Shown: positions 28,728 to 36,130 of the stretch, piece after piece | Layout: every line of letters begins with the position of its first letter | Position numbering within the stretch: the first letter of the stretch is position 1 | NCBI GenBank assembly: GCA_963821845.1 | Contig: CAWGFI010000006.1 | Coordinates: forward strand, 65,478 to 129,477 | DNA length: 64,000 nt | Origin: an uncultured delta proteobacterium | Lineage (GTDB): Bacteria > Desulfobacterota > Desulfarculia > JACQYL01 > CAWGVV01 | Direction of reading: 5' to 3' | Made by a program: the position numbers and the translations under genes | The notes under the pieces: model-generated | Databases searched by the model: none | Seen by the model: only the letters and a program-made list of their open reading frames with translations | Told to the model about the DNA's origin: nothing

Positions 28728-29793
28728 TACAGGAAGCCATCGCCAAGGTCGTGGAAGGAACCGACTTGTCCGAACTGGAAATGATGGCAGGTCATGGATT
28801 TCATCACCGAAGGCCGGGCCACGCCCGCCCAGATCGGCGCCCTGCTCATCGGCTTGCGCATGAAGGGCGAAACCGTGGACGAAATCGCCGGGGCGGCCCG
28901 AGTCATGCGCAATAAAAGTGTTCGCATTCCCGTGGGAGAATCCAACGTTTCCATGGATCGCGACGAAATAAACATGGACCGGGAAACCATCGTCGACACC
29001 TGCGGGACCGGCGGGGACGGGACCAGGACCTTCAACGTCTCCACCACCACCGCCTTTGTGGCCGCCGGCGCGGGTCTGAAAGTGGCCAAGCACGGCAACC
29101 GGTCGGTGTCCAGCCAGTGCGGCAGCGCGGACGTGATCGAGGCCCTGGGAATCCGAATCGATCTGAAGCCTGAACAGGTGGGCGCGTGCATCGACGAGGT
29201 GGGCATCGGCTTTTTGTACGCGCCGCTTCTGCACGGGGCCATGCGCCACGTCATCGGGCCGCGCAAGGAAATCGGTCTGCGCACGATTTTCAACATCCTG
29301 GGGCCGCTGACCAACCCGGCCGGGCGCCACGGTGCAGGTGCTGGGCGTCTACCGGGAGGATCTCACCGACGTCATGGCCCGGACGCTTCAACGGCTGGGC
29401 TGCCGCAGCGCGTTCGTGGTTCACGGTGAGGGGAGCTACGACGAAATCAGCGTGACCGGCCCCACCAGGATAACCCGGCTTTGCGGCGATGACGTAACCT
29501 CGCTGTCGGTGACGCCCGAAGAACTGGGGCTGCGGAGGGCCAAGCCCGAAGAGATCCTGGGCGGAGACGCCGCAGAAAACGCGGCCATTGTCAGGTCCGT
29601 CCTGTCGGGCCGCCATGACGCGCGCCGGGACATGGTGCTCATGAACGCCGCCGCCGCGCTGGTGGCCGCCGGAAAGGCCGACGGCCTGCCGCAGGGCGTG
29701 GAAATGGCGGCGGAAGCCATCGACAGCGGTCGAGCCGCTCAAAAACTGAACGATCTGGCGGAACTGAGCGTCCGCTTCAGTCAGGCCGCCTAG
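28724..29793 (+). pseudogene. trpD: anthranilate phosphoribosyltransferase, interrupted by 2 frame shifts as assembled
   Basis: Three collinear frame segments: [22 protein letters not shown] | [19 protein letters not shown]...[15 protein letters not shown]...[10 protein letters not shown] | [11 protein letters not shown]...MNAAAAL. Shifts (+1 each) are near 28790 and 29331. The ATG overlaps the trpE stop (ATGA). Confidence 0.8.
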
Positions 29794-29819
29794 CGGCTCA
29801 CCGGAAGAGAAGCGGATTC

Positions 29820-30610
29820 ATGAGCATACTGGACAAAATCATAGAAACCAAAAAGCAGGAAATCGCGGCGCTGAAGGCCACAAGCGATCTCGCCGACATG
29901 AGCCGTCAGGCCTTGAAGCGGCCTCTGGGCCGCGGCCTGGAAGCGGCTTTGCGAAACAACGGCCGAACGCCGGTCATCGCCGAAATCAAACGGTCCTCGC
30001 CTTCGGCGGGCGTGTTGAATGGACAGGTGAACGTACGAATCCCTGGCCACAGCCTACCAGGGCGCGGGCGCGGCGGCGGTGTCGGCGCTTACCGACCGGA
30101 CCTTATTTCAAGGGAAGCCTGGAAGACGCCCGCAAGGCTCGGGCCGTCCTGAATATTCCTGTTCTGCGCAAGGATTTCATCATCGACCCCATCCAGCTCT
30201 ATGAAACCAAGCTGGCGGGGTTGGACGCGGTCCTGCTCATCGTGGCCGCCCTGGAGCCGCCGCTTCTTCGGGACTTGTACGCCCGGGCGCGCGATCTCGG
30301 CCTTTCCGTGCTGGTGGAGGTTCACCGGGAAGAGGAGCTGGACGCCGCTCTGGCGCTGAATCCGTCCATCATCGGCGTCAATAACCGCAATCTCTCCGAC
30401 ATGACCGTATCGCTTGAAACCTGCGTAAGGCTGCGGCCTCTGATTCCCGCCAACGTTTTGGTGGTGGGCGAAAGCGGCGTGAACACGCCCAATGACGTTT
30501 CCCGCTTGCTGAGCGCCGGGATAAACGGCTTTCTGGTGGGATCGGCGCTCATGAAATCAAACGATCCGGGCGGTCTGCTCAAATCGCTGGTCGAGGCAAG
30601 GAGCGCGTAG
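29820..30610 (+). pseudogene. trpC: indole-3-glycerol phosphate synthase, interrupted by 2 frame shifts as assembled
   Basis: Segments MSILDKIIETKKQEI...VIAEIKRSSPSAGVL.. | YESLATAYQGAGAAAVSALTDRTLFQG | SLEDARKARAVLNIPVLRKDFIIDPIQ...VGVNNRNL. Shifts are near 30033 and 30115. Confidence 0.8.
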
Positions 30611-30612
30611 CC

Positions 30613-33230: not shown

Positions 33231-33840
33231 TTCTCATCATCGATAATTACGATTCCTTTACGTTCAACCTGGCTCACGCGTTGGGCGAGCTAGGCCGGGA
33301 AATCACGGTCAAACGCAATGATGCGGTCTCGCCCCCGGAGATCGACATGGCTGAACCCCGAGGCCATCGTCATTTCGCCGGGTCCGGGACGGCCGGACGA
33401 TTCGGGCGTGAGCCTCGAAGTCATCGAGAAGTTTGCCGGCAAAATCCCCATCCTGGGGGTCTGCCTGGGGCATCAGTGCATTGGCCGAGGTGTTCGGAGG
33501 CCAGGTGGTTCGGGCCAAGGAGCCGGTTCATGGGAAGACCTCGGAGGTCTTTCACGACGGCCGGACCATGTATCGGGGCGTCCGAAATCCGTTCAAGGCC
33601 ACGCGGTACCATTCCCTGATGGCGCCCGAGGACGACTTGCCGGCCAGTCTGGAAGTATCGGCCTGGACTTTGGACGGTGTGGTCATGGGCGTGCGGGCCG
33701 TGGGCCTGCCTGTGGAAGGGGTCCAGTTTCACCCCGAATCCATCGCCACCCCGCTGGGTAAATCCATCCTCCGGAATTTCCTGGAGCACTACGTCGTGCG
33801 GCCGACAGGCGGCCTGAGGGAAGGAAGCGCGTCATGGTAA
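33227..33840 (+). pseudogene. trpG: anthranilate synthase component II (glutamine amidotransferase), 2 frame shifts as assembled
   Basis: AAGGAGGA RBS. Segments [23 protein letters not shown]...EIDM | [21 protein letters not shown]...[12 protein letters not shown] | [19 protein letters not shown]...YHSL...GVQFHPESI. Shifts are near 33350 and 33483. Confidence 0.8.
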
Positions 33841-34879
33841 TTTTGATGACCGAAAAGTGCCGGAAAAAAGAGGTGGCGGATGTCCTGTCCGCCATCAAAG
33901 CACGAGGGTTCGAGCCGCGCATGATCACGTCCCAGACCGCGCGTGGTGCTCGGGCGTGGTGGAAGAAATGAAGCCGCCGGCAGATCGAAGAACTGACCGA
34001 GGCCCTGTCCAAGCTGCCGGAGGTGGAGGGCATCGAACTGTTCGGCCTCCTGCAAACTGGCGGGCCGGACGTTCCGTGTGGAAAACACGCTGATCCCGTG
34101 CAGGCGCACGAACGCTCGGGGACGGCGGCATTACGGATCATGGCCGGACCGTGCGCCGTGGAATCCCGGGAGGCCATGCATTAGAGATCGCCCGATTCAT
34201 CAAGGCGGCAGGAGCGGATATGCTGCGCGGCGGCGCGTTCAAGCCGCGGACGTCGCCGTATTCCTTCCGGGGCCTGGGCCAGGAAGGGCTGGAGCATCTG
34301 GCCGAGGCCCGCAGGAAACCGGGCTGCCCATCATCACCGAGGTGCTGACCCCGGAGGAATCGCCCTGGTGGCCGGATACGCGGACATTCTCCAGATCGGG
34401 ACCCGCAACATGCAGAATTTCGCGCTTCTGGAGGCGGCGGGCGAAACTGGACAAGCCGGTAATTCTCAAAAGGGGATGATGGCCACGGTGAAGGAACTGC
34501 TGCTGTCGCGCGGAATACATCCTGGCGCAAGGGCAATCCGCAGGTGATTCTCTGCGAGCGGGGCATCCGCACGTTTGAAAAGGAAACGCGAAATACACTG
34601 GACATATCGGCGGTGCCTCTGCTAAAGCAACTGTCCCACCTGCCGGTGGTGGTGGACCCCAGCCACGCCGTGGGAAAGCGCGGAACTGGTGCCCGCCATG
34701 GCTCTCGCGGCCGTGGCGGCCGGCGCGGACGGTCTGATGATCGAAGTGCATCCCGACCCGGACGAGGCCCTTTCCGACGGCCGGCAAAGTCTGACCTTCG
34801 ACGCCTTTGCGCGCTCATGCGTAATATCGAAAGCGTGGCGGCGACGGTAAAGAGCATCTACAAAGGAAATGATCGATGA
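33834..34879 (+). pseudogene. aroF: DAHP synthase (type I-beta) with N-terminal ferredoxin-like regulatory domain, about 15 frame disruptions as assembled
   Basis: Segments MVILMTEKCRKKEVADVLSAIKARGFEP | [16 protein letters not shown] | [14 protein letters not shown] | [45 protein letters not shown] | [15 protein letters not shown] | [25 protein letters not shown] | [11 protein letters not shown] | [43 protein letters not shown] | [37 protein letters not shown]. Domain order is as in the Thermotoga-type enzyme. Confidence 0.75.
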
Positions 34880-36130
34880 AATTGTGTGGCGAATTTCGAA
34901 CCGCCGGGCGACAAATCCATATCCCACCGGCTGGCGCTCATGTCGCATTCTGGCCGAAGGTCGGTTGACCGCGACTCATTTTTCCTCGTGCGCGGACGTG
35001 CGCTCCAGCCTGGAAGCGGTGAGGGCGCTGGGCGTTGCATGTCGATATCCAGGGCGACCGGGTGATCATGGAGGGCGCCGGGGGCGCAATCGAAAGCCGG
35101 GCGCAGCATCGACTGCGGAAATTCCGGCACCACCATGCGGCTGCTCATGGGAATTCTGGCCGGGCAGCCGGGCCAGTATGTTCTGGACGGAGACGACTCT
35201 CTGCGCAAACGGCCCATGGAACGGGTCGCGGCGCCGCTCAGACGCATGGGCGCGGCCATCGAACTCGCCGCCGGAAAAAGCCCGGCGACTATTGAAGGCG
35301 GGGATCTGCGGGGAATCGAATTCGAACTTCCCACCCCCAGCGCCCAGCTCAAGAGCGCCACGTTGCTGGCGGGCGTGCAGGCTTCGGGCGCTACAAGCGT
35401 TTTGGAGCCCATCGTCAGCCGGGACCACACGGAACGGCTGCTGACCATGATGGACGCGCCTCTTACCAAAATTCGCGGCGGCTGGCGCGTGGAACGCGGC
35501 CCCCTGAAATTTCCCGCTGAATTCGACGTGCCTGGCGATAGCTCTTCCGCGGCCTTTTTTCTCTGCGCCGCCGTGATCCTGCCCGGAAGCGAAATCATCG
35601 CCCGCAATACCTTGCTCAATTCCACACGTTCCGGCTTTGCGCGGGTATTGCTGCGCATGGGCGCGTCGCTGAACATTGAAACCGATCGCGAGGATCCGGA
35701 ACCGGCGGGGACCATAACCGCCCGGTATTCGCGCGGGCTCGCGGGTTGCCGGATCGACGCCGAGGAAATCCCGGCGCTCATCGATGAAATACCCATTCTG
35801 GCGCTGGCGGCCACGCAGGCTCGGGGGACCACCGTGTTTGAAGGGGTGGGCGAGTTGCGGGTGAAGGAATCCGACCGGCTAGCGGCAATCGCCGGACAAC
35901 TCGGCGCCATGGGAGCGCGGATTACCGCCGAAGAGGACCGGCTGATCATCGAAGGCCCCACGCCGCTCAAGGCGCGGCGGGAACTCGATTCCCTGGACGA
36001 TCACCGCATCGCCATGACCCTGCGGCTGGCCGGGCTGCTCACAGAAACCGAACCGGCCATACGCGGCGAGGAATGCGTCTCCATCTCCTATCCCGATTTT
36101 CACGAAGCCCTGCGGATGTTATGCCGATGA
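34876..36130 (+). pseudogene. aroA: EPSP synthase (3-phosphoshikimate 1-carboxyvinyltransferase), 4 frame shifts confined to the first ~230 nt
   Basis: [11 protein letters not shown] | DKSISHRLALMS | ILAEGRLT..ADVRSSLEAVRALGV | VDIQGDRVIMEGAGG | then the uninterrupted ORF 35135..36130 (DCGNSGTTMRLLMG...RDHTERLL...KESDRLAAI...DDHRIAM). Shifts (+1 each) are near 34908, 34945, 35035 and 35100. The ATG overlaps the upstream stop (ATGA). Confidence 0.8.

Follow-up and report, generated by a model that had tools for sequence, protein, structure and literature searches.

Local, indel-only disruption of an aromatic amino acid operon in a deposited contig from an uncultured Desulfobacterota-like lineage, very probably due to consensus error

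The sequence analysed here (the window) is a 64-kb stretch of DNA from an uncultured Desulfobacterota-like lineage. On its forward strand lies an operon for aromatic amino acid biosynthesis with the gene order trpEDCFBAG, aroF, aroA, aroE, aroKB, aroC, aroQ, aroF, pheA, tyrA (Table 1). Leader peptide ORFs precede trpE and the second DAHP synthase. A homologue of each was found in L010, the relative whose syntenic operon is closest to that of the window, and a W-rich leader corresponding to that of trpE is present in a second relative, L016. Both leader-peptide attenuators and the ATGA-type overlapping gene junctions of the operon were found to be unbroken.

Table 1. Features of the aromatic amino acid operon and frameshifts identified in each (window coordinates)
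Feature	Coordinates	Strand	Observation
Leader peptide ORF MNTTVRRFFCFWYWRFFFRQPAVRSVL (27177-27260) and hairpin/T-run (27292-27324)	27177-27324	+	Intact attenuator 5' of trpE
trpE	27342-28727	+	Intact, 0 shifts; 410/459 identical over reference residues 4-462
trpD	28724-29793	+	2 shifts, one-base insertions, ~28787 and ~29322
trpC	29820-30610	+	2 shifts, one-base insertions, ~30039 and ~30103
trpF	30613-31223	+	2 shifts, one-base insertions, ~30868 and ~31127
trpB	31177-32406	+	16 shifts (penalty-dependent range 10-16)
trpA	32407-33246	+	9 shifts (range 8-11)
trpG	33227-33840	+	3 shifts: firm one-base insertions at ~33353 and ~33486, marginal call at 33805
First DAHP synthase, aroF-type with FXD domain	33834-34879	+	15 shifts (range 11-15)
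aroA	34876-36130	+	4 shifts, one-base insertions, ~34894, ~34946, ~35040 and ~35104
Dense core of the island	31127-35104	+	48 shifts in 4 kb (1.2% of bases)
aroE and aroK-aroB fusion	36127-38507	+	Intact, 0 shifts each
aroC	38500-39563	+	One-base insertions (2), ~38593 and ~38909; beyond the interval of the earlier note
aroQ	39560-39997	+	Intact, 0 shifts
Second leader peptide MKLFSNGFYYYFYYFTAYPCALEDAV (40576-40656) and two hairpin/T-run elements	40576-40760	+	Intact, 5' of second DAHP synthase
Second DAHP synthase	40782-41677	+	One-base insertions (2), ~40911 and ~41503; beyond the interval of the earlier note
pheA and tyrA	41776-43787	+	Uninterrupted; pheA 0 shifts by alignment

Frameshift-aware protein-to-DNA alignment (BLOSUM62, frameshift penalty -12) was performed using the intact orthologues of L010 as references, the TrpE proteins of the two operons being 89% identical. 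This identified 53 shifts within 28787-35104, in line with an earlier note on this DNA, which had estimated approximately 50-55 disruptions from trpD to aroA. Its gene-by-gene counts also proved nearly exact, with small departures for trpA (9 shifts against at least 10) and trpG (3, one of them marginal, against 2). The island that it had placed at 28790-35110 was thereby recovered, but not its end at 35110, as further shifts interrupt aroC at 38593 and 38909 and the second DAHP synthase at 40911 and 41503. The disruption thus covers 12.7 kb (28787-41503), dense at 31.1-35.1 kb and sparse at 28.8-31.1 and 38.5-41.5 kb. The operon-wide total over this span is 57 shifts, four of them 3' of 35110, and varies from 45 to 59 as the penalty goes from -25 to -8. 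The end of trpB has no in-frame stop, suggesting that this gene probably contains one further, uncounted indel.

The identical aligner reported no shifts in trpE, aroE, aroK-aroB, aroQ and pheA, in eight syntenic upstream genes, or in eight genes from a more distant outgroup. As these intact control genes score zero, the shifts of the operon are not an artefact of alignment, and the sequence itself carries the frame disruptions. The peptides encoded between shifts were found to share 60-87% identity with their references and to align over the full reference length, with the match continuing right up to each shift, and no in-frame stop codon was found across the shifted operon genes. These results bear out the earlier description of family-typical peptides, of a lack of nonsense codons other than those explained by a neighbouring shift, and of trpE, pheA and tyrA as uninterrupted.

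The disruption was found to be local. No shift was identified in 2,093 reference-checked flanking codons, where the rate of the whole island predicts approximately 28 (P = 6e-13), and none was seen in the approximately 51 kb surrounding the span, where frameshifts close to gene ends outside the reference-checked blocks may escape detection. A reference-free frame model recovered three of the four switches in aroC and the second DAHP synthase (that at 40911, near the gene start of the latter, was not resolved) and showed no frame switching elsewhere in the 64-kb window. A further candidate frameshift at approximately 23170 was rejected, this same-strand switch being the boundary of two separate genes, DsbD_2 and MarR. 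The aromatic operon is high in GC, but so are other parts of the window that are free of shifts. No repeats or mobile elements were found to bracket the island, and no Rfam families were found in the window. An inverted pair of approximately 87 nt (40187-40273 and 43905-43989) was the sole repeat of note, and it does not bracket the island.

The broken ORF fragments were found as database entries from a single 585,774-bp NCBI/ENA contig only, including a trpD fragment (28794-29429) and an aroA fragment (35135-36130), the final 1,000 nt of aroA being clean. The indels are thus present in the deposited assembly. Their introduction after deposition was rejected, as four of the broken fragments match entries from this contig exactly. 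A search with TrpE of one-genome-per-species GTDB contigs and JGI/ENA metagenome contigs returned no contig of the same species, and the best match to the stitched TrpB among 5.8 billion proteins was 83% identical. Over the genome, metagenome and protein searches, the nearest relatives reached 83-89% amino-acid identity at most. Each orthologue in L010 and L016 is one open frame in which the shift sites are absent.

The events comprise one or two bases in both directions, with insertions outnumbering deletions 43:14 (p = 1.5e-4), an excess that the earlier note had also reported. Its description of the typical change as a one-base alteration of run length was not borne out. The context analysis took in 35 +1 events, the 14 deletion events being too few for statistical power; nine of the 35 extend a run, 20 are unlike both neighbours and six are ambiguous. 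These proportions agree with simulated random insertion (35/52/13% for run extension, unlike both and ambiguous, respectively) and differ from simulated run extension (78/12/10%, p = 1e-10), by which homopolymer run-length errors were ruled out. No common motif was identified among the shift-site contexts, and neither slippery runs nor long homopolymer tracts are present at these sites. CpG-creating insertions account for 12 of the 35 against 11% expected, this excess having been found post hoc.

Inserted bases that are mostly unlike their neighbours also agree with an artefact of mixed reads, in which two co-existing strains or related species would have been merged at consensus or polishing in a conserved operon, so that the two alleles of a variable site were kept one after the other or false corrections were made. 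Related organisms carrying the same operon were indeed found in public metagenomes, and 20 of the 35 insertions would fit the doubling of a synonymous third codon position. However, random insertion in simulation already yields 45%, which this proportion (57%) does not significantly exceed (p = 0.11), and retention of both strain alleles at third codon positions was rejected on this ground. Within the island, third codon positions are no more similar to those of the nearest relative than elsewhere, which also led to the rejection of contamination of the consensus by an L010-type organism, and 14 of the events are deletions. Mixed reads are therefore considered an unlikely source of the indels.

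Identity at codon positions 1 and 2 lies well above that at position 3 in the island genes, matching the pattern of intact trpE (0.92/0.66 in trpB, 0.93/0.64 in trpE). Relative rates were compared by means of an outgroup: changes seen in the window alone and in the relative alone numbered 9 vs 19 for trpB, 11 vs 13 for trpD, 17 vs 21 for the DAHP synthase and 31 vs 22 for trpA (not significant), and no extra amino-acid change on the window lineage was found in any island gene.

If the indels were real and very recent, synthesis of tryptophan, chorismate and DAHP would just have been lost by a local burst of indel-only mutagenesis, in keeping with the presence of the indels in the deposited sequence and with the grouping of all broken genes in one pathway cluster. 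The ratio of indels to substitutions in bacteria is roughly 1:10, and hundreds of substitutions and many stops would be expected beside 57 indels; none were seen. Natural indel spectra and decay in bacteria are deletion-biased, contrary to the insertion bias found here, and damage is absent from trpE, aroE, aroKB, aroQ, pheA, tyrA and both leaders. No mutational process known to us would add single random bases across 4 kb at a density of 1%, and such a loss is judged highly improbable.

Real indels could also leave the proteins intact if frames were restored by insertion/deletion editing, transcriptional slippage or ribosomal frameshifting, and undiminished purifying selection on the peptides is what such a system would predict if the DNA is correct. 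Against this, the shift sites have no motif in common and no long homopolymer tracts on which slippage could act, they involve both directions and both one- and two-base events, and they are missing from the L010 and L016 orthologues. With up to 16 events per gene the yield would be negligible. No such frame-restoring system is known to us in bacteria, and its operation here is barely credible. Even when real gene loss and recoding are taken together, it is very improbable that the island is a real biological feature.

The indels are in the public record, are the sole type of damage and are local. They are very probably errors in the deposited consensus rather than mutations of the organism, a technical origin to which the lack of other damage points (no nonsense codons, a symmetric relative-rate test and a trpE-like codon-position pattern). 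The earlier note had favoured an unpolished or low-coverage patch over an old pseudogene cluster, and this preference is upheld by the indel-only damage, the lack of excess substitutions, the insertion bias and the locality. The best reading of the sequence is a low-depth, long-read-type mechanism, whereby the 28.8-41.5 kb region may rest on a very small number of error-prone reads, or may have been missed by polishing, and random single bases, mostly extra, would have remained in the consensus at up to approximately 1 per 80 nt. The pattern of the island may be compatible with raw long reads whose errors are stochastic and rich in insertions. Long-read assembly is recognised as a source of gene-fragmenting indels, and the errors that remain in Nanopore or HiFi assemblies after polishing are usually homopolymer-linked and deletion-rich (PMC12007338). 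The island departs from the latter signature in its run extensions (9/35) and its insertion bias (43:14). The underlying operon is most likely intact and functional.

At face value, the record suggests auxotrophy for tryptophan, phenylalanine and tyrosine, with six trp genes, aroA, aroC and both DAHP synthases apparently lost. This carries a risk of false pseudogene counts and of false predictions of metabolic dependency for an uncultured lineage, and the main value of the case is as a warning. A contig that is clean over tens of kilobases can still contain a patch with 1% error, and such a patch may lack the homopolymer signature assumed by error-correction tools. Real indels would indicate an unknown mutational or recoding process, for which the evidence leaves very little room. 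In the scarcely conceivable event of recoding, a bacterial recoding or editing system would be active at more than 50 sites of one biosynthetic operon, which would account for the inter-shift peptides without relaxed selection.

Comparison to known systems showed that the supraoperon order trpEDCFBAG-aro...-pheA-tyrA is common to the operon of the window and a related metagenomic contig. As in attenuation of the trp/pheA type, a terminator hairpin lies 3' of each of two short leader ORFs rich in F, W and Y codons. These likenesses cover the underlying, apparently intact operon and do not account for the indels. Pseudogene clusters of host-restricted or syntrophic bacteria resemble the island in having a disrupted tryptophan or aromatic operon with intact neighbours, but genuine decay is accompanied by nonsense codons, accelerated amino-acid change and deletion bias, none of which the island shows. 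The prfB +1 site, the +1 sites of Euplotes and insertion editing in Physarum mitochondria likewise combine a broken genomic frame with a conserved protein; the island differs from programmed frameshifting and RNA editing in having no recurrent motif, mixed directions and sizes, and sites that are not conserved in relatives. Indel errors of long-read and hybrid assemblies, with their false pseudogenes, share with the island indels of one or two bases that split conserved genes while the peptides remain normal, a lack of accompanying substitutions, and confinement to one assembly (PMC12007338). Those errors are typically genome-wide, homopolymer-tied and deletion-biased (PMC12007338), whereas the island occupies 12.7 kb, is independent of homopolymers and is rich in insertions (43:14). 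In this it resembles a consensus drawn from stochastic reads, at low depth or left unpolished, more closely than it does systematic residual error.

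The genes for aromatic amino-acid biosynthesis form a long operon on the + strand, which in the window was found to be split into many short ORFs across the three forward frames. The identical gene order (trpE-D-C-F-B-A-G, DAHP synthase, aroA, aroE, aroK-aroB fusion, aroC, aroQ, second DAHP synthase and pheA), with intact ORFs throughout, is found on a related metagenomic contig, L010, whose TrpE is 89% identical. The start/stop overlaps at the gene junctions are kept in the window.

Features of the aromatic operon and its surroundings (window coordinates)
Feature	Position	Strand	Description
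Conserved ORF	23740-23901		54 codons; to the left of the two-gene insert
Two-gene insert	24013-26763	-	Between the 54-codon ORF and the trp leader; low GC (0.45-0.50); MBOAT-family acyltransferase and 449-aa protein without Pfam match; missing from the otherwise syntenic L010
trpE leader ORF with hairpin and T-run	27177-27324		Leader of 27 codons, MNTTVRRFFCFWYWRFFFRQPAVRSVL; F/W/Y 10/27 residues; L010 homologue MTLDRFFYFGYWWRFFPLPAVRSVP
trpB end	32398-32406		No stop codon ahead of the trpA start in the final frame
aroK-aroB	36942-38507		Single 521-aa ORF, shikimate kinase and 3-dehydroquinate synthase; same fusion in L010
aroC shifts	38593 and 38909	+	Two 1-base insertions
Inverted pair	40187-40273 and 43905-43989		Arms of about 87 nt, complementary at 97-98%; one on either side of the block of second DAHP synthase (aroF2), pheA and tyrA
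Second leader ORF with hairpin and T-run elements	40576-40760		Leader MKLFSNGFYYYFYYFTAYPCALEDAV, Tyr- and Phe-rich; upstream of second DAHP synthase, pheA and tyrA; L010 counterpart MKLFNSGYYFYFYYFSSYPCALEDTV
Second DAHP synthase shifts	40911 and 41503	+	Two 1-base insertions

Proteins of L010 were aligned to the window with a purpose-written protein-to-DNA aligner that permits insertions and deletions of one or two bases. This identified 53 shifts between 28787 and 35104, in agreement with the 50-55 or so counted by eye in an earlier note, distributed over trpD (2), trpC (2), trpF (2), trpB (16), trpA (9), trpG (3, one marginal), the first DAHP synthase (15) and aroA (4), with none in trpE or aroE. 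The operon-wide total ranged from 45 to 59 across frameshift penalties of -25 to -8. No shift was returned by the same aligner for eight genes of the more distant relative L016 (50-71% identity) or for eight syntenic genes that precede the operon, indicating that it does not invent shifts.

The earlier note had ended the island at 35110, but the further shifts in aroC and the second DAHP synthase extend the affected span to 28787-41503, with 57 shifts. A reference-free codon-usage frame model detected both aroC switches and that at 41503; over the rest of the 64 kb, the only same-strand frame switches it showed were at normal gene boundaries. The ORFs of aroE, aroK-aroB, aroQ, pheA and tyrA are uninterrupted, as had been noted for the latter two and trpE. 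The core (31.1-35.1 kb) holds 48 shifts in 4 kb, or 1.2% of bases, flanked by 5 in 2.3 kb to the left and 4 in 6.4 kb to the right. The last few codons of trpB probably hold at least one further indel, outside the count of 57.

Events comprised 37 one-base and 6 two-base insertions, and 10 one-base and 4 two-base deletions, bearing out the reported predominance of insertions (43 versus 14, p = 1.5e-4). For 35 analysable one-base insertions, the base removals best restoring the reference match were sought, and the same procedure was applied to simulated insertions in intact genes. Twenty inserted bases were unlike both neighbours, nine were run extensions and six were ambiguous, individual sites staying ambiguous as to run extension; simulated random insertion gave 52%, 35% and 13%, respectively. 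Pure run extension (simulated 12%, 78% and 10%) was rejected (p = 1e-10), contrary to the earlier description of the changes as usually one-base run-length changes. A CpG was created (C before G, or G after C) by 12 of the 35, compared with 11% in simulation (p = 3e-4, post hoc), which may be a clue to sequencing or consensus chemistry. A consensus drawn from a strain mixture predicts doubled synonymous third positions; these amounted to 57% against a null of 45% (p = 0.11), and this explanation is thus not supported beyond the null.

Signs of decay were sought by comparing changes unique to the window with those unique to L010, using L016 as outgroup. Amino-acid changes (window versus L010) numbered 9 versus 19 for trpB, 11 versus 13 for trpD, 17 versus 21 for DAHP synthase, 12 versus 19 for trpG and 31 versus 22 for trpA; no island gene showed an excess in the window, no difference being significant. 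Identity at codon positions 1+2 and position 3 was 0.92/0.66 for trpB and 0.93/0.64 for intact trpE, in both cases the pattern of ongoing purifying selection. Window peptides follow the reference up to every shift and cover it end to end, and, as previously remarked, no in-frame stop codon was found in the aligned operon genes. In bacterial mutation spectra, substitutions exceed indels about ten-fold and small deletions outnumber insertions. Fifty-seven real indels would therefore predict substitutions in the hundreds together with many stop codons. Neither was seen, and real recent gene loss, or recoding or editing, is together considered very improbable.

The window also retains two intact leader peptides with many aromatic codons, both conserved in L010 and each leading into terminator hairpins. 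Behind the trpE leader, directly ahead of the trpE ribosome-binding site, comes a GC-rich hairpin with a T-run, and L016 has a W-rich leader with the same terminator; the window element resembles a classic leader-peptide attenuator sensing all three aromatic amino acids. Between the second leader and the second DAHP synthase lie two hairpin and T-run elements. The low-GC aroQ-aroF2 spacer, which carries one arm of the inverted pair, is about 800 nt (339 nt in L010). Each arm contains small internal palindromes. The window has no other copies, Rfam gave no match, and the pair is possibly an intergenic element of REP or MITE type.

Intact window proteins match entries of the protein collection exactly, with a single NCBI/ENA contig of 585,774 bp as sole source. 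The same holds for the broken fragments at 28794-29429, 29820-30152, 30613-31023 and 35135-36130, showing that the indels belong to the assembly as deposited and are no later addition. The genome, metagenome and protein collections searched yielded no second copy of this organism's operon.

As the damage is indel-only, insertion-biased, context-random, strictly local and without evolutionary footprint, the sequence evidence points to a local consensus artefact at 28787-41503. On this evidence the island is most likely not a biological feature, in keeping with the earlier preference for an unpolished or low-coverage patch over an old pseudogene cluster. Most likely, the long reads behind the stretch would have been very few and error-prone, or polishing would have skipped it. 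In practice, aromatic amino-acid auxotrophy should not be inferred from the record.

Single frame changes, each seen as two tblastn segments in different frames, were identified in trpB of an unrelated Holophagae MAG (L009, 14781-15942) and trpE of an unrelated MAG contig (NPIE01020136; L020, 6962-8349). These illustrate isolated assembly frameshifts, unlike the dense patch of the window. Long-read assemblies are well known to contain indels that fragment genes (PMC12007338); however, the residual errors described there are homopolymer-linked and deletion-rich, and the window island matches neither trait.
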